Origin: Minisyncoccia bacterium
GTDB taxonomy: Bacteria > Patescibacteriota > Minisyncoccia > Phycocordibacterales > Phycocordibacteraceae
Assembly: GCA_041485695.1 (NCBI GenBank)
Contig: JBGPJZ010000003.1
Location: 1 to 57,113 of the forward strand
DNA length: 57,113 nucleotides
Direction: 5' to 3'
The notes beneath the pieces are model-generated. The model saw nothing but the letters and a program-made list of their open reading frames with translations. It did no database searches and was not told the origin of the DNA. The first letter of the stretch is position 1, and each line of letters begins with the position of its first letter. This document shows positions 27,926-35,589 of this stretch, one piece after another. The translations under genes were made by a program, and so were the position numbers.

Positions 27926-29806
27926 TTATTGCACAGCCGCCTTCGTGGGGGTATAGCCGGGGTCGGTCGGGGTCTCGGTGGAGACAGAGCTCCCTGTCGT
28001 CGTTACTTGCACTTGGGCATAGCGATCAAAGGCTGAAAAAGCGGGGGCGCTCGTAAGCGTCGGAACCGAGCCGCGCTGACTCGTACTCGGGGTCAATACC
28101 ACCTGAAACGCCACCTGACGAGAGGCACCGCCACCAATGTCGCCCATCTGCCACGTAACGGCGTGCGAGGGCGCGTCATAGCTGATGGAGCCGTCAGAGG
28201 GCGATGTCACTCCAGGAAAGGCGATGTATGAGGGGAGCGTGGCTGAAACGACGGCGCCAGCAAGATCATTGCCTGCATTCGCCACGCTCCACTCTATAGT
28301 GTAGGTGGTCGGCTGATCTGCTTTCGGAGGCACGGGACCCGAATTTGCGAAGGGCCCCGATGCGTGGAGCGAGGCCGCAGTAAAGGTGACAGCGCTTACG
28401 AGCTTGATGACCTTCGAGGATGAAGCCGAGACCTGCTCTGGCACGCCTGACTGCCCGACGCGCTCACCAGCGATAGATACGGTGAGGGTGATGGCCGAGT
28501 TGCGCGGCGCGTTCGTAAGAGTCGAGAAGGTGAAGGTGCCAAGCCCCGAAGCGCCTGGCGCGAGTGAAGCCAAGGTCGCATCAGTGTCCCGACTAAAAAT
28601 GACGGTGCGGTCAGCCGAGCGATAAAAGCCGTTATGCGCCTGGACGCTTGCGGGATCGAGCGCCGCGCCGCTAATCGCAATATCAATCTCTGCATTAGTG
28701 AGCGGTACTGAAAGCGCGTTCGCCCACGCAACGCCAACGGTTACCGGGGCTCCGGGGGCGACGGCGGGAGCTGCGGCTGAACTCCCGTTCACTGTAAACG
28801 ACGTCGTGAGGAATGGCGCCGTGATGTTGATGCTCGCTTCTTGCGTCATGTAGCCTACCGCGAGCGAAGGGTCACTCGCTGCCTTCGCCGTTCCGATGGT
28901 GAAATGAAAAACGCGCACCTCATTGTTTTGGCCGTTCAATGTTCCCGTGAGCGTGACAGTTTTAGAAGCGCCCGGCTTCAAGGTCCCCAAGGGGAAATTG
29001 GTACCAACTGCGGGGAGCGAAGAGTCGGTGACGAGATAGCCGGCGGGGTATTGTGCCGCAAGCACGACCCCTTCGACAGGCTGCGTCGCGTTCGAGCGGG
29101 CTGTTACCCGTATCGTAAAAGGCTTCCCAGACACCGTTTCAGACACGGTATCGACTGTGACCGAAAGGGGCGCTGTCGAGATTACGACCGGATACGTCGA
29201 TTTTTTCACAAAAACAGCATTTGAGCGCGAGGTACCAAATGAGAGTGAAACCGAGATGGTCGGCTGCGCGCCCTGCGCTCCGAACAAGACCGCAGAGATC
29301 GAGCGCTCGACTGTCTCGCCCGGAGAAAGCGTCCCGAGATTTTCACTGAAACGTGGATATGCAGCGGTGACATCGGTCGCGCTCCTGGTACCTTCAGGGA
29401 AGGCCACTTCAAGAGTGGCATTTTCGACCGACGTGGAGTTCTTATTTGTGACGACGATCGAAAGGGGGACGGTATCGCCGCCGGCTACCGTAGTAGGACC
29501 TTGGATAGTGAGCTCGATATTATCTACTGATACCGTGTTACCCCCGGTATAAAACAAGAACGCCGAAACGCCAATGGAGATGACGAAAAAGGCGATGGCA
29601 ACAAAGAAGAAGCGTGATGCGAAATGCACGTGATGTGCGGCGCCGAAGGATGAGAGTTGCAAGCGTTCTTTCCACGCGTGCGGTATTGAAGAATCAGTGC
29701 TACGAGGAAACACCGGAGCCACGGGCGGAGAAGCCTCGCCTGGAGAGTAGAGGCGTTCACGCGCCTTACCAAGCGCGCTTAAACCAGGATCTTTCTCAGG
29801 AGGCAT
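27926..29806 (-). CDS. Single-pass membrane protein with tandem Ig-like/DUF11-like domains
   Basis: One TM followed by beta-rich repeats (YTIEWSVANAGN, VTWQMGDI). Start set at MPPEKD, 6 nt after TATAAT. Confidence 0.8.
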   Translation of the reverse strand: MPPEKDPGLSALGKARERLYSPGEASPPVAPVFPRSTDSSIPHAWKERLQLSSFGAAHHVHFASRFFFVAIAFFVISIGVSAFLFYTGGNTVSVDNIELTIQGPTTVAGGDTVPLSIVVTNKNSTSVENATLEVAFPEGTRSATDVTAAYPRFSENLGTLSPGETVERSISAVLFGAQGAQPTISVSLSFGTSRSNAVFVKKSTYPVVISTAPLSVTVDTVSETVSGKPFTIRVTARSNATQPVEGVVLAAQYPAGYLVTDSSLPAVGTNFPLGTLKPGASKTVTLTGTLNGQNNEVRVFHFTIGTAKAASDPSLAVGYMTQEASINITAPFLTTSFTVNGSSAAAPAVAPGAPVTVGVAWANALSVPLTNAEIDIAISGAALDPASVQAHNGFYRSADRTVIFSRDTDATLASLAPGASGLGTFTFSTLTNAPRNSAITLTVSIAGERVGQSGVPEQVSASSSKVIKLVSAVTFTAASLHASGPFANSGPVPPKADQPTTYTIEWSVANAGNDLAGAVVSATLPSYIAFPGVTSPSDGSISYDAPSHAVTWQMGDIGGGASRQVAFQVVLTPSTSQRGSVPTLTSAPAFSAFDRYAQVQVTTTGSSVSTETPTDPGYTPTKAAVQ

Positions 29807-29813
29807 CTCTCTA

Positions 29814-30353
29814 TTATAGACCGGAGAGCTCAATGCCGCGATTGATGCGCGTAACAAGCATAGTTCGGTCGCGACCTGCCTCGACGAGGTCAGGGATGCT
29901 GCCTGCGTCAAAGCCGAGGGATGAAAGGAGGCGGAGGACAGCGCGACATTCAATAGCTTCTGAAAGTGCCTCGGGTAGGGAGGTAAACGCAGCAAATGTC
30001 TCTGTAAGGAGAGCGAAGATTGCTGGGTCGGGAGTTTCGGCCGGAACAAGGCGTAACACAAGGCCTACGACGCGTGCCGCCCGTACCCGGGCGGCACGCG
30101 GAAACTCATTAAACCAATGCTTCGCAAGCGTAGCACCTGTTACTCTCCACCCCTCTGTCCCGCGGACGAGCGTGACGTCGCTCTCGGTAAAGGTCAAAAG
30201 CGCCGAAGCAAGCTTCGCCCCAGGCCGGCGCACCCCTTGCACTCGCGCGCGCACCAACCCAACATCGTGGGTAAGGAGCGTGACAAGCGCATTTGCCTCT
30301 CCAAGCGGAGTGCGTGCGATGACGAGCGCCCGAGTTCCATATTTATGCCGCAT
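29814..30353 (-). CDS. recO: DNA repair protein RecO (short)
   Basis: GEANALVTLLTHDVGLVRARVQGVRRPGAKLASAL OB-fold pattern. Start overlaps the ileS stop. Confidence 0.85.
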   Translation of the reverse strand: MRHKYGTRALVIARTPLGEANALVTLLTHDVGLVRARVQGVRRPGAKLASALLTFTESDVTLVRGTEGWRVTGATLAKHWFNEFPRAARVRAARVVGLVLRLVPAETPDPAIFALLTETFAAFTSLPEALSEAIECRAVLRLLSSLGFDAGSIPDLVEAGRDRTMLVTRINRGIELSGL

Positions 30354-33300
30354 CAACGATGAGATTAAAGGTGACCATACCTGTTGAAAGCTCGACCGAG
30401 TACTTCCCTCCCGGCACTCGCTCAGCATACGCTTTGTCTTTAGGCGAGAGGCCTTCGGCCTTTCTCGCCTCCGCAACCGCGCGCGCCATCTCACGCTCAT
30501 CGCCCTCTTTTATGAGCGCGGGTGTAAGGTGTGTATCAAGAGAATATGACGGCGCGTCCTGGCCCAAAGGGGCTAGCAGGACTTTTTTAACGTTTAACTC
30601 TTCTGCAAGGATCTGTGCTACATCATTCCACAGCGGAGGAGGCAGGAAAGAATGTTTAATTGTGAAAGATGCTAAAGGTTGTCGTACTTTTATTTCAGCT
30701 CGTTGCCGCGCTTGAAGTCCGAAAGAGGCGATTCCGCGCGCGAGTTGCATGGCCGCAAGAATATCTCGGTCTTTTTTGTTATCAAAAATGCTTAGCCACG
30801 AACGCTTCACAATTGGCCATGCTGCAAGATGCACGCTCTCCGGATCATCATGACTGCGGACTTTTCTGAAGACGTCCTCCGCGATAAATGGCGCAAAGGG
30901 AGCGATAAGGAGCGAGATCGTGCACAACGTTTCGCGGAGCGTTTCAGTCGCGGCCGCATCTCCCTCGCGCGCACGGTCGCGGATGCGCCGCACATACCAC
31001 TGCGAGAGGTCCTCGCAGAGCGCGGCAATCTCACGCGACGCGTCATACAAATGGTATTCATCAAACGCCTCGGTCACTCTCCGCGTCGCTTGTGCGACGC
31101 GCGTCTTCATCCATCTGTCGATTATTTGCTCCTTTCCTTCTTTCTTTTCTCCCGCGAACAATTCGTAAAACTTCGCGCTATTCTCGAGCCAAGAAATGAC
31201 ACGCGCAGACTCTTTGAGCGTTTTTTCATCATAGTTCTTAGAGTCTCCTGCCTGATTGACGTAGTACATCCAGAAGCGGAGCGTATCAGCGCCCCACTTC
31301 TCTATTTCCGCCCACGGCTCGACGACATTCCCCTTCGACTTGCTCATCTTCTTCCCTTCTGCATCGAGCAGGTGCCCGAGGCAAATCACGTTTTTATACG
31401 CACGACCGCGACCCATCAAAACCCCGACCGCGAGCAGGGTGTAGAACCATCCGCGCGTCTGATCAATCGCTTCTGAAATGAAGTCGGCGGGATACACGAC
31501 GTGTTTTGGCTCCTGCGCAAAGGGCATCGAGCCGGAATCGAACCATACGTCCATGACCTCGGGTACTCGCCGCATCTCCTTTCCCGAATCCGAAATCAAA
31601 ACAACGTCATCAATGTATGGCCGATGCAAATCGAGCTCGTAATCGTCATTGTGAGAAAGAGGTACGAAATCAAGCTCGCGCGACCGCCCCGTTGGCATAC
31701 TGAGTCCGGCGATGAGACGTTTCGATCCGTGCCTGTCTGCGCCTTGTGCTACGGCGCCCAATGTCTCGACACCGACGCCATGGGTAATGATGAGGATATG
31801 TTGACCCGCCTGGCGGCGTTCAATATCGTGCAAAAATGCTCCGAAGCGGTTCTTTGCGTCCTGATAGCTCTCGCCGCCTGGGACTTTATCGTCATACTGA
31901 TGCCCATCACGAAATGACTGGAAGTCGGCTATGGGCCGATGGTTAAAATCGCCGAACTCAAATTCGCGCAAGCGGTCATCGTAGGTGATGTTCTCTTTAG
32001 GAATAGCGAGTAGCTCCGCAACAATCTCGGCTGTCTCCCGTCCGCGAAGGAGCGGTGAAGCGTAGATGCGAGTTGTGCGAGAGAGCGCACGAGTTGCAGC
32101 TTTGACTTCAAGTTTCCCTTGCAGGGTCAATGGATTCCCGGCTCGATCATTGTTCGCCATACCCTTTACGTTGTGCTCGGCCTCGCCGTGGCGCATCACA
32201 AAATATTTGTTGTCTGATTTTTTGGTACGCTTTTTTAATTCAGCGACAGAACCTATAACCAGCCGCTCCTTTTTGTCGGCAGTCTCCCAGACCGGGAGCG
32301 GCGTCGCCCAATAGCGCTCGCGCGAGATCGCCCAATCCTTTACATTCGCGAGCCACTCCCCCATGCGTCCATCACGGATATGTTCCGGCTCCCAACGAAT
32401 CTTCTGATTTTCCGCAACAAGCTCGTCGCGCACCTCCGACATGCGGAAATACCACGAGTCGCGGGCATAGTAGATGAGTCGCGTCTTGCACCGCCAACAA
32501 AAGGGGTACGTGTGCGTGTATGACTCTTTTTTGAACAACAGGTCGCGTGCCTGCAAATCCTTCAATATTTCAACCGACGTCTCTTCTTCTACGACCGAAC
32601 GACCAGCAAGGAATCCGGTGCCTTCGATAAACTTCCCGTCCGGTGCAACTAAATGCACTTTCGGCAGTCCGATTTTCTGTCCAAGTTCAAAGTCGTCCTG
32701 CCCATACATCACGGCTGTATGAACGATACCCGTCCCCTCTTCGGTGGTTACGAAATCTGCAGCATACACCTGAAACGCCTTATCAAACTTTTGTTTCTCA
32801 GTTTCCGGCGCGAGATTTTTCGCAAAGTCGTAGAGTGGTTTGTACTTCTTGCCCACGAGATCAATGCCTTTGACGAGCCGTAGGGGTCGCGAAGAAATAG
32901 TCTGGCCGAGCGAAGCGAGGAGACCCGAGGACTTTTCTGCAGCGACTCCTGCGGCGAGGATGAAGCGCTCTCCGTTGACTTCGTGCACGCTATAGTCAAT
33001 ATCCTTCCCAACCGCGAGGGCAACGTTCCCCGGCAAGGTCCACGGCGTCGTCGTCCAAGCAAGGAGATACGTGCCGGGTTCGTCAACGAGTTCAAATTTC
33101 GCGGTGATCGTTAAATCTTTTACGTCCTCATATCCTTGCGCGAGTTCGTGCGAGGAGAGCGCAGTGCCGCACCGCGGGCACCAGGGCACCACTTTATAAT
33201 CCCTGTAGAGCCGGCCGTCGTCAGAGACTTTTTTGAAAATACCCCAGAGCGCCTCCATGTAGGAGGGGTCGGAGGTGAAGTAGGCCGAGGACTGGTCCAC

Positions 33301-33684
33301 CCAATAACCGATGCGCTTCGTGAATCGCCCCCATTCGTCGATGTAGCGGAGCACGCTCTCTCGGCATTTTTTATTAAATGCGGCGACGCCATACGCTTCA
33401 ATATCTTTCTTCCCTTTAAACCCAAGTTCCTTTTCTACTTCGAGCTCAACTGGCAAGCCATGCGTGTCCCAGCCGGCGCGGCGAGCTACGCGATACCCAC
33501 GCATCGTCTTGTAGCGCGGAATCGCGTCTTTGAATGCGCGCGCCTCAAGGTGATGAATACCTGGCTTGCCGTTCGCGGTCGGTGGGCCCTCGTAGAAAAC
33601 GAAATCGCCCTTCGGCGCCTTCTTTCGAAGCGACTTCTCAAAAATCTTCTCGCGCTTCCAAAAAGCTAGTATCTCATCCTCCAT
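30343..33684 (-). CDS. ileS: Isoleucine-tRNA ligase (type 2) with inserted histidine-phosphatase domain
   Basis: FYEGPPTANG..HH, GWDTHGLP, WTTTPWTLPGN, ISRERYW, WFDSGSMP, AIDQTRGWF, KMSKS. Start at 33684 or 33690. Confidence 0.97.
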   Translation of the reverse strand: MEDEILAFWKREKIFEKSLRKKAPKGDFVFYEGPPTANGKPGIHHLEARAFKDAIPRYKTMRGYRVARRAGWDTHGLPVELEVEKELGFKGKKDIEAYGVAAFNKKCRESVLRYIDEWGRFTKRIGYWVDQSSAYFTSDPSYMEALWGIFKKVSDDGRLYRDYKVVPWCPRCGTALSSHELAQGYEDVKDLTITAKFELVDEPGTYLLAWTTTPWTLPGNVALAVGKDIDYSVHEVNGERFILAAGVAAEKSSGLLASLGQTISSRPLRLVKGIDLVGKKYKPLYDFAKNLAPETEKQKFDKAFQVYAADFVTTEEGTGIVHTAVMYGQDDFELGQKIGLPKVHLVAPDGKFIEGTGFLAGRSVVEEETSVEILKDLQARDLLFKKESYTHTYPFCWRCKTRLIYYARDSWYFRMSEVRDELVAENQKIRWEPEHIRDGRMGEWLANVKDWAISRERYWATPLPVWETADKKERLVIGSVAELKKRTKKSDNKYFVMRHGEAEHNVKGMANNDRAGNPLTLQGKLEVKAATRALSRTTRIYASPLLRGRETAEIVAELLAIPKENITYDDRLREFEFGDFNHRPIADFQSFRDGHQYDDKVPGGESYQDAKNRFGAFLHDIERRQAGQHILIITHGVGVETLGAVAQGADRHGSKRLIAGLSMPTGRSRELDFVPLSHNDDYELDLHRPYIDDVVLISDSGKEMRRVPEVMDVWFDSGSMPFAQEPKHVVYPADFISEAIDQTRGWFYTLLAVGVLMGRGRAYKNVICLGHLLDAEGKKMSKSKGNVVEPWAEIEKWGADTLRFWMYYVNQAGDSKNYDEKTLKESARVISWLENSAKFYELFAGEKKEGKEQIIDRWMKTRVAQATRRVTEAFDEYHLYDASREIAALCEDLSQWYVRRIRDRAREGDAAATETLRETLCTISLLIAPFAPFIAEDVFRKVRSHDDPESVHLAAWPIVKRSWLSIFDNKKDRDILAAMQLARGIASFGLQARQRAEIKVRQPLASFTIKHSFLPPPLWNDVAQILAEELNVKKVLLAPLGQDAPSYSLDTHLTPALIKEGDEREMARAVAEARKAEGLSPKDKAYAERVPGGKYSVELSTGMVTFNLIVDAA
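32895..32942. repeat. Hairpin element family B, in-frame inside ileS
   Basis: 45/48 identical to the intergenic copy at 54061-54108. Confidence 0.85.
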
Positions 33685-33713
33685 AATCATTCAATCCTAG
33701 CGTTTTTAAGGGC

Positions 33714-33990: not shown

Positions 33991-35589
33991 TCACATCTTT
34001 TCGGGGGTGGGAATACCGAGTAGTTTGAGCCCGTTTTGCATGGTGTTCACGAATGCTCGCGCGAGCATGAGCTTGTGCGCCTCGTGCTCCCCGCCAATAA
34101 TCTTTTCTTTCGCATAAAAAGAATTCCATTCGGCCGCGAGTTCGGTGAGATAGGTGGTGAGGAGGTTCGGCGCGAGCTCGTGTGCGGCGCGCGCGACGAT
34201 TTCAGGGAAATGCAAGATGTCGCGCTCGATGAGATACGGTACTTCAGGAGGAGTCTCGATACGAGCCTGCTTGCTCGCCTTCTCAAGTACTGATTTCGCG
34301 CGCACCAAGGCGTACTGCAGATACGGCCCGGAATCGCCCTCAAGCGAGAGCGACTTCTCGGGGTCAAAGGTGATGTCGGAGCCCGACGCCTGCCGGAGAA
34401 TCATGTATTTGATTGCGCCGATTGCGACCTCTTCAGCGACGAGCGGGTCTTCGTTCTTCTCGCTCGCTTTCTTGATGACGTCGGTAATAAAATCACTCGC
34501 AGTGATGACATTCCCCTCGCGCGAAGACATCTTCCCGCTCGCAAGCCGCATAAATCCGTGCGCGACGTGCGCGGTCTTTTGAGCGAGCAGAGGCGCGACA
34601 TCGTGGAGCGCCGCAAGGACGGTCTTGAATCGCCCTGCCTGCTCATTACCGGTCACGATGATGACACGGTCGCTGGGCCAGCGCTCCTCGCGGAGGAATG
34701 CGAGCCCCAAATCCTTCGCCTCATAGGTCGGCGTGTCGTGCGAGGTGATGAACACCATCGTATGCACGCCCTTCGCTTCACCGTCATAGATGATGGCGCC
34801 GTCGCTCTTCTTGAAAATCCCCTTTGCGAGGCCGTCCTGCACGATGCGCATGCCGGCCTCGGTCGTATCGCTATCAAAAAGCTCGAAGTCATATTTTGTG
34901 CCGAGAAGGCTCCAGGTACGGCGGAATTCTTGCATCGAGACCTCACGACCGCGCTCCCATAAGCTCATGAGGGCGACATCTTTACCCGCGTATACCGCCT
35001 TGCTTAACGTATCAATCTCTCCTTTGGCGCTGGCGTCTTCTTCATATGCCTTTGCCCCTTTCGCGTATGCCTCGCCCAGCTCCTTGGCATCAAAATCAAT
35101 AACCGCGTCTTTCTGTAGAGCCCACAATGCTTTCGCGACATTGGGGCCCACGTCGCCACCGAATGTATCGCGTGCGACCGTCGCTCCTCTTGACTCGATG
35201 AGGCGCGAAAATGCCTCGCCAATGATAGTGCCCATCATGTGCCCGATATGCATCTCTTTAAACGCATTCGGGTTGCCGTACTCAATCATCACGCGGCCGC
35301 CAGTTGGCGGAGCCGCCATATCGTTCCCTCTCCCCCACTCCTCGCCTTTTGCATCTGCTTCGGCAACCGCAAAACTAACCGCCTCGCGCGAGAGCGTGAT
35401 GTTCACGAATCCTGGACCCGCAACTTCAACGTGCTCGGCGTCCGCGCCGAGCACGTCTTTGAGCGTCTTGGCGACTGCTTCGGCCTCCTTCCCCACAAAC
35501 ACAGCATAATCCCCGTGCGCCGGGTCAGGCGGCCGCCTAATCGCGCCCGCACTCTCCGAGCCTAGAGCTTTTCGTATCCTCTCTTCCAT
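33991..35589 (-). CDS. argS: Arginine-tRNA ligase
   Basis: GPGFVNI, EYGNPNAFKEMHIGH, KMSSREG, GDSGPYLQYALVR, C-terminal PEKM. Confidence 0.97.
   Translation of the reverse strand: MEERIRKALGSESAGAIRRPPDPAHGDYAVFVGKEAEAVAKTLKDVLGADAEHVEVAGPGFVNITLSREAVSFAVAEADAKGEEWGRGNDMAAPPTGGRVMIEYGNPNAFKEMHIGHMMGTIIGEAFSRLIESRGATVARDTFGGDVGPNVAKALWALQKDAVIDFDAKELGEAYAKGAKAYEEDASAKGEIDTLSKAVYAGKDVALMSLWERGREVSMQEFRRTWSLLGTKYDFELFDSDTTEAGMRIVQDGLAKGIFKKSDGAIIYDGEAKGVHTMVFITSHDTPTYEAKDLGLAFLREERWPSDRVIIVTGNEQAGRFKTVLAALHDVAPLLAQKTAHVAHGFMRLASGKMSSREGNVITASDFITDVIKKASEKNEDPLVAEEVAIGAIKYMILRQASGSDITFDPEKSLSLEGDSGPYLQYALVRAKSVLEKASKQARIETPPEVPYLIERDILHFPEIVARAAHELAPNLLTTYLTELAAEWNSFYAKEKIIGGEHEAHKLMLARAFVNTMQNGLKLLGIPTPEKM
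35297..35311. repeat. Palindromic element family A inside argS (encodes PPTGG)
   Basis: ccgccagttggcgga, 14/15 identical to the family core. Confidence 0.6.

Follow-up and report, generated by a model that had tools for sequence, protein, structure and literature searches.

The window analysed here comprises positions 1 to 57,113 (57,113 nucleotides, forward strand) of contig JBGPJZ010000003.1, from the assembly GCA_041485695.1 of a Minisyncoccia bacterium (phylum Patescibacteriota). Its minus strand carries argS and, directly downstream, ileS, which encodes an isoleucyl-tRNA synthetase (IleRS). The ileS gene is a single open reading frame (ORF) of 1115 aa with no internal stops, and a histidine phosphatase domain is nested within the synthetase that it encodes. 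An earlier note, made from the DNA letters alone, had proposed such an insertion and had pointed out that it is foreign to a canonical IleRS. Pfam, NCBIfam, alignment to insert-less structures and confident structural models all agree with this proposal. The coordinates of the features are given in Table 1.

The host is a complete housekeeping type-2 IleRS and the sole one of the cell. The protein scored 801.1 bits against the ileS equivalog TIGR00392 (cut-off 621.4; 803 bits in the genome search), with a profile alignment broken at position 507/508 by the insert. In the same way, the Pfam tRNA-synt_1 match (E = 1.4e-112; residues 7-495 in the first half) is split around a His_Phos_1 match. 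Anticodon_1 was matched at residues 858-1006, and DUF5915 weakly. A single IleRS above the cut-off was found in this 620-kb genome of 12 contigs, whose completeness is estimated at 97%. As this genome encodes both tRNA-Ile(GAU) and tRNA-Ile(UAU), its only IleRS presumably aminoacylates tRNA(Ile).

The best sequence and fold matches of the host are IleRS2 structures and not IleRS1. The enzymes of Thermus thermophilus (1ILE/1JZQ) and Priestia megaterium (IleRS2; 8C8U/8C8V/8C8W) belong to the same family, with E-values of about 1e-209 to 1e-212 over both halves of the protein, and share with it the CP1 editing domain, the KMSKS motif, the anticodon-binding domain and the C-terminal domains. The C-terminus is of type 2, without the zinc-binding domain of type 1. 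The full-length AlphaFold model, with a mean predicted local distance difference test score (pLDDT) of 92.5 and a predicted template modelling score (pTM) of 0.84, superposes on 8C8V (TMt 0.78) and 1ILE (TMt 0.84).

To describe conservation, we used a set of 113 full-length IleRS orthologues, whose inserts are 48-67% identical to the present one. The CP1 editing motifs (T213-T215 of the WTTTPWT block, W217, H324 and D333) are invariant among them. Both class I signature motifs are present in the host, KMSKS and, for the HIGH type, the sequence GIHH. This GXHH variant is the motif studied in the 8C8W mutant, and the third position of the motif is His in 88 and Gly in 24 of the orthologues. The G/AXHH motif is functional in IleRS2 and confers mupirocin hyper-resistance (PMC10485003).

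The position of the insert was defined by comparison with the solved structures. Residues 488 to 679 of the query face residues 477 to 479 of P. megaterium IleRS2 (8C8W), and residues 491 to 686 face residues 482 to 488 of T. thermophilus IleRS (1ILE). The extra segment therefore measures about 185-190 aa, in agreement with the 185 aa estimated beforehand. It stands in for a loop of only 1-5 residues in the solved IleRS, between ELKKRTKK on one side and PLSHNDDYELDLHRPYID (PLSHN..DLHRPYID) on the other, and base composition is uniform across it. In the Thermus enzyme, a CxxC precedes this loop and a CxC follows it, and together they form a Cys4 zinc knuckle. These cysteines are lost in the present IleRS, where the four positions read T, K, S and S. 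All four are retained in only 4 of the 110 insert-bearing orthologues, whereas the knuckle is intact in insert-less IleRS relatives. With the zinc knuckle gone, its structural role seems to have passed to the nested domain.

The insert itself matches Pfam His_Phos_1 (PF00300) over residues 497-658 (window 31717-32202; E = 4.7e-27) with 95.4 bits for a gathering cut-off of 21.7, i.e. far beyond chance, and a genome-wide search recovered His_Phos_1 at the same place in ileS. The nearest sequence in the PDB is PhoE (1EBB/1H2E; E = 9e-10), with which the RHGE motif, the second arginine, the glutamate of RLRE-x-x-G and the histidine of THG align residue for residue. The full set of catalytic motifs read in the earlier note is indeed present, since every string quoted there was found in the translation: LVIGSVAELKKR ends at residue 488, followed by RHGE (500-503), SPLLRGRETA (545-554), RLREFEFG (573-580), GGES (605-608), ITHG (635-638) and DLHRPYID (687-694). 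The histidine of ITHG, expected near 31780, is H637. The interval 32185-32193 proposed for RHGE contains R500, H501 and G502 but stops short of E503, which lies at 32182-32184.

Table 1. Features of the ileS locus in the window (residue numbers refer to the 1115-aa IleRS).
Feature	Position	Strand	Basis
argS (arginyl-tRNA synthetase), directly upstream of ileS	33991-35589	-	tRNA-synt_1d, DALR_1, Arg_tRNA_synt_N
ileS, 1115-aa type-2 IleRS with nested phosphatase	30343-33690	-	ORF, TIGR00392, fold match
IleRS residues 1-491: first Rossmann half, CP1 editing domain, WAISRERYW...PLPVW...ELKKRTKK up to the insertion point	32218-33690	-	tRNA-synt_1; aligned to 1ILE 13-482 and 8C8W 14-477
G44-I-H-H47, non-canonical GXHH form of the class I HIGH signature	33550-33561	-	Sequence; aligned with GVHH of 8C8W
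Nested branch-1 histidine phosphatase, residues ~492-676	31663-32217	-	PF00300; absent from solved IleRS structures; fold models
R500-H501 of the RHG motif, H501 predicted phospho-accepting nucleophile	32188-32193	-	Invariant in 113/113 orthologues; aligned with RHGE of PhoE 1EBB
N507, phosphate-pocket Asn (RHGxxxxN)	32170-32172	-	>=90% conserved in orthologues; N in most phylum copies sampled; aligned with N of PhoE
R549 (SPLLR motif), second phosphate-binding Arg	32044-32046	-	Invariant
E576 (RLREFEFG), predicted general acid/base	31963-31965	-	Invariant in orthologues; E in all nested copies
H637 (ITHG), second catalytic His	31780-31782	-	Invariant; aligned with THG of PhoE
IleRS residues 677-1115: PLSHNDDYELDLHRPYID, DVWFDSG, KMSKS, anticodon-binding domain, type-2 C-terminal domains	30346-31662	-	Anticodon_1; aligned to 8C8W 479-907
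KMSKS, residues 781-785	31336-31350	-	K781, S783 and K784 invariant among orthologues
recO-like ORF	29814-30500	-	
711-aa ORF with DUF11 and NEW3 repeats	27926-30061	-	

In the full-length model, pLDDT ranges from 92 to 98 over the insert and its linkers, and the domain modelled alone reached a pLDDT of 94.3 and a pTM of 0.91. It has the alpha/beta fold of the superfamily, and its closest folds in Foldseek (TMq 0.74-0.83) are small phosphomonoesterases of about 200 aa: the novel-type phosphoserine phosphatase 4IJ6, TIGAR (3DCY), CobC (6E4B), the riboflavin-pathway phosphatase 9MMH and PhoE (1H2E), with the larger mutases ranked below them. The probability is 1.00 and TMq reaches 0.83 for 4IJ6, 1H2E and 9MMH. 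PhoE/YhfR of Geobacillus stearothermophilus (1EBB, 1H2E), PspA (4IJ5/4IJ6), CobC (6E4B, 6NRU) and TIGAR share the fold and size class of the insert, and their RHG, R, E and HG motifs align with it. However, they are free-standing enzymes with metabolite substrates, while the insert is nested in a synthetase and only 18-28% identical to them.

None of the NCBIfam equivalog cut-offs (CobC, dPGM, GpmB, PspA, SixA) was reached by the insert. It scored 64.8 bits with the CobC model TIGR03162 (cut-off 162.9), the fold likeness to 6E4B and 6NRU being a resemblance only, and 27.2 bits with the SixA model TIGR00249 (cut-off 74.5), over residues 496-564 only. The mutase models gave 59.9 bits for 225 (NF038349), 50.7 for 261 (NF002901) and 31.9 for 316 (NF002339). 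A substrate specificity can therefore not be transferred from these families. What the data show is a conserved domain of the histidine phosphatase superfamily that is folded, has the full catalytic set and is fixed within the only IleRS of the cell; it is not demonstrably assignable to any characterised PF00300 subfamily. Judging from its residues, it is apparently an active phosphatase.

We then investigated the conservation of the catalytic residues, as the earlier note would have abandoned the idea if they were not conserved among orthologues. R500, H501, R549, E576 and H637 are invariant in the 113 orthologues. The same five residues are kept in every nested copy from 27 other genomes of the phylum, although these copies share only 28-41% identity with the insert, and they include both members of tandem versions as well as a copy nested in a valyl-tRNA synthetase (ValRS). 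Among the orthologues, pairwise identity averages 48% over the insert, 52% over the anticodon/C-terminal region and 63-64% over the catalytic body. By this measure, the insert is under constraint comparable to that of the anticodon-binding part.

The nested architecture is widespread. When long proteins alone were searched with the insert, 2520 matches were obtained at E <= 1e-3. The best 120 of these 2520 matches are all IleRS with PF00300, from sources named Paceibacteria, Parcubacteria, Minisyncoccia or Patescibacteria. An exhaustive HMMER search yielded 547 clusters (50% identity) at E <= 1e-10, and most of its top matches are either long proteins, in which the domain lies around residue 480-530 when the sequence is full-length, or fragments of such proteins. 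In the databases, insert-bearing IleRS are merely labelled "class I tRNA ligase family protein".

From 400 other genomes evenly sampled from the phylum, 181 present a match at E <= 1e-5. Within the class of the window, the domain lies in an open frame of 1150-1250 aa in 19 of the 23 genomes (one frame being cut by a contig end); three of the remaining genomes have a free-standing domain and one has no domain. About 39 genomes of other classes show the domain inside frames of 900-1550 aa. For the 26 IleRS-nested loci that were fetched, the junction is each time identical to that of the window. At least 3 of these 26 loci carry two tandem copies of the phosphatase, and four copies were found in one metagenomic fragment.

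The phosphatase is also linked to class Ia synthetases outside the nested form. In the three genomes of the same class whose IleRS lacks the insert, it is encoded by a separate gene located 0.9-2.7 kb upstream of ileS, on the same strand. The gene order in these genomes is argS - phosphatase - one unrelated gene - ileS, as in L043:3616-10362 (+) and L041:806-8628 (-). The intervening gene is alternative-oxidase-like in L043 and has no Pfam match in L041. This order, with an insert-less ileS and an intact Cys4 knuckle, parallels the adjacency of argS and ileS in the window. Two further genomes (one other family) carry a free-standing copy upstream of an ileS that itself has a nested copy.

A ValRS with its Val_tRNA-synt_C arm also carries a nested His_Phos_1 (E = 2.9e-33; L018:1-3186 (+), genome G158 of the same phylum). 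This copy is 37% identical to the present insert, lies at a different site (after DTWFSSG) and has intact catalytic residues. In a maximum-likelihood tree of the domain, the clade of IleRS-nested copies also contains the copy from ValRS and the free-standing copies located upstream of ileS, with support values of 99/80 for the subclade of these additional copies and 84/91 for the larger clade.

On the basis of these data, the domain would be a working phosphomonoesterase. Following the chemistry of the superfamily, H501 would attack the phosphate of the substrate and form a phospho-histidine intermediate; the phosphate would be held by R500, R549, N507 and H637, and E576 would protonate the leaving group and then activate a water molecule. 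The reading that we favour, and to which we give about an even chance, is a functional partnership of long standing between this phosphatase and class Ia synthetases (IleRS, occasionally ValRS). The phosphatase would be kept in a 1:1 ratio with IleRS, beside the synthetic site, and its substrate would be a phosphorylated ligand met by the synthetase, the likeliest candidates being a phosphomonoester of the nucleotide type or a tRNA acceptor end that carries a phosphate. Of the roles offered in the earlier note, tRNA end repair and nucleotide clean-up may thus both apply. The domain would additionally fill the structural place of the zinc knuckle. We favour a partnership because the associations with IleRS and ValRS are repeated and independent, and because the domain is retained across the class. 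If so, tRNA charging, or its protection, would include a step of phosphate removal that has so far gone unrecognised.

A more specific and rather improbable version of this partnership is a third catalytic site acting in cis. At the CCA end of tRNA(Ile), the phosphatase would clear a blocking 2'/3'-phosphate, or the one that remains once a pyrophosphate has been cleaved by a Nudix or HD partner; or it would dephosphorylate a nucleotide-type poison or by-product at the synthetic site, so that charging could proceed. The CP1 editing domain offers a model for such a site: this hydrolase, embedded in the Rossmann fold in each of IleRS, ValRS and LeuRS, works in cis on what its own synthetase has made. 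However, CP1 is universal, has another fold, hydrolyses esters and has a demonstrated substrate, while the nested phosphatase is restricted to some lineages. If true, a third site in cis would make this domain the first histidine phosphatase to target nucleic acids or ligands of a synthetase, and would account for the accumulation of Nudix, HD, GNAT and kinase-like domains in one enzyme.

Several observations weigh against a functional tie to aminoacylation. They leave a substantial, though less than even, probability that the domain is an active housekeeping phosphatase for metabolites or nucleotides, lodged in a permissive surface loop of an essential and constitutive gene and retained in a streamlined genome since the fusion supplies expression and stability free of cost. 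To our knowledge, no histidine phosphatase acts on nucleic-acid ends, and the nearest structures are all small-metabolite phosphatases. Orthologues of this IleRS elsewhere tolerate GNAT, AAA_18 kinase-like, HD and IS200-type transposase domains. A permissive landing pad fits such varied inserts as well as a functional partnership does, and synthetases in general are reported to be frequent hosts of nested domains (PMC13114784, a domain-insertion survey of 2026). Among 20 free-standing relatives, 15 are without ileS in the DNA fetched (about 6 kb on each side, less at contig ends), and the five ileS-linked cases stem from only two lineages. Some of the unlinked genes stand beside Nudix and isochorismatase genes, a faint hint at ordinary nucleotide or nicotinamide adenine dinucleotide (NAD) metabolism; these neighbours occur within one family only and are too weak for a pathway to be assigned. 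The genome also encodes a second, unrelated His_Phos_1 protein, so such phosphatases clearly have ordinary roles in this cell. On the other side, this phosphatase subfamily accompanies class Ia synthetases in three or more independent arrangements: within IleRS, at another site within ValRS, and as a separate gene between argS and ileS. Moreover, the insert persists class-wide, tandem duplication has occurred repeatedly and has given as many as four copies, and the domain is positioned with confidence in the model together with its linkers, unlike a floppy appendage. Were the phosphatase unrelated to charging, the locus would clearly illustrate how an ultra-small genome can house an unrelated enzyme in a permissive loop of an essential gene, a case that matters for the annotation and the protein engineering of synthetases.

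The other explanations are much less probable. The domain could be a catalytically silent scaffold in place of the Cys4 knuckle, as might be suggested by the near absence of the four cysteines from insert-bearing orthologues, their presence in insert-less IleRS and the rigid placement of the insert in the model. A scaffold needs no invariant catalytic residues, whereas R500, H501, R549, E576 and H637 never vary even though the sequences compared, duplicated copies included, otherwise share only 28-67% identity, which makes a purely structural role very unlikely. Even less likely is a glycolytic form of the metabolic moonlighting raised in the earlier note, with the domain as the cofactor-dependent phosphoglycerate mutase (PGM) of the cell. 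The insert does belong to the PGM superfamily, and no cofactor-independent PGM (iPGM) was found in the genome. However, no enolase was found either in this 97%-complete genome, while the control search was positive in 14 out of 14 reference genomes; lower glycolysis thus appears incomplete, and a mutase would have no downstream partner. In addition, the dPGM and GpmB models gave only 32-60 bits for cut-offs of 225-316, and the mutases rank lower than the small phosphatases among the nearest folds. We therefore rejected the glycolytic role. An artefact, i.e. an assembly chimera, an intein or a spliced-out mobile element, is next to negligible and was also rejected: the frame is uninterrupted, the base composition is even, no Pfam family of inteins or transposases matches this protein, and the same architecture and junction are shared by more than 100 independently assembled orthologues.

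Two further proposals were rejected from the gene content of the cell. The genome has its own family-I pyrophosphatase, so the nested domain is not needed to remove the pyrophosphate released by aminoacylation. Nor is it the only histidine phosphatase of the cell: the second His_Phos_1 gene, on contig 2 (G000:C2:59955-60443 (+) = L010:1486-2070), encodes a free-standing protein of 194 aa that is 24% identical to the nested domain. A possible alarmone or toxSAS context was uninformative, as the genome encodes one ordinary RelA/SpoT homologue of 561 aa.

The three-enzyme architecture is real and conserved, and had been noted in passing in the literature, never analysed or assayed. In our full-text searches for a pairing of IleRS with a phosphatase, the sole mention found was one descriptive sentence on SR1 (Absconditabacteria), whose IleRS is interrupted by domains of the phosphoglycerate mutase family (Kantor et al. 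2013, PMC3812714). In both cases, the reading frame of a candidate-phyla IleRS is interrupted by a domain of the PGM superfamily. However, the SR1 enzyme has a nudix domain and a second PGM copy, while the present protein has one phosphatase and no nudix. Beyond that sentence, the paper analyses neither where these domains are inserted nor their conservation or function. A nested phosphatase is mentioned neither in a 2026 paper on how the domains of IleRS evolved nor in the 2026 survey of nested domains (PMC13114784).

Two NCBIfam families offer precedents, both with sub-threshold matches to the present protein. NF040702 (ileS_w_GNAT) describes an accessory enzyme fused to IleRS, and there is no GNAT domain here; NF005567, the bifunctional RNase H/acid phosphatase of the Rv2228c type, joins a branch-1 histidine phosphatase to a nucleic-acid enzyme, and there is no RNase H here.

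Few enzymes have been studied as thoroughly as the aminoacyl-tRNA synthetases, and the accepted picture of class Ia includes two catalytic sites, for synthesis and editing. Here, an apparently active third enzyme is present in the sole IleRS of a whole bacterial class, and this phosphatase was recruited repeatedly, as tandem copies, in ValRS and as a linked free-standing gene.

Some IleRS orthologues carry additional enzymes, either nested or appended (P0170, P0189, P0190, P0239 and P0269; also P0085, P0106 and P0113). An AAA_18 kinase-like domain is placed after the phosphatase, GNAT and phosphatase occur together in some orthologues, and in one case the editing region contains a Y1 transposase domain of the IS200-like type. 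Some have a C-terminal HDIG domain; this HD domain gives no functional clue because only the generic HDIG model matches it. Among the free-standing relatives, those of family f52 adjoin the Nudix and isochorismatase-family genes (L044:5585-5947 (-), L048:8764-9273 (+), L048:4784-5281 (+) and L052:4091-4594 (+)). The Nudix neighbour is weak in L044 and reaches E = 2.8e-11 in L048, and these neighbours recall the nudix domain of the SR1 IleRS.

Finally, we looked at the isoleucine tRNAs and at the genes downstream of ileS. The genome encodes tRNA-Ile(UAU) as well as tRNA-Ile(GAU) (G000:C6:3974-4050 (+) and C5:40635-40710 (-); both genes lie outside the window). Its CAU tRNAs number only two. These counts suggest that AUA is decoded with an unmodified-type UAU anticodon and not with a lysidine tRNA, an unusual state for a bacterium. 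The CCA end is encoded in both tRNA-Ile genes, and CCA is found at or near the 3' end in only 13 of the 40 tRNA genes. Downstream of ileS, the 711-aa ORF with DUF11 and NEW3 repeats probably encodes a cell-surface protein. As listed, it overlaps the 3' part of the recO-like ORF, and its true start probably lies further downstream.

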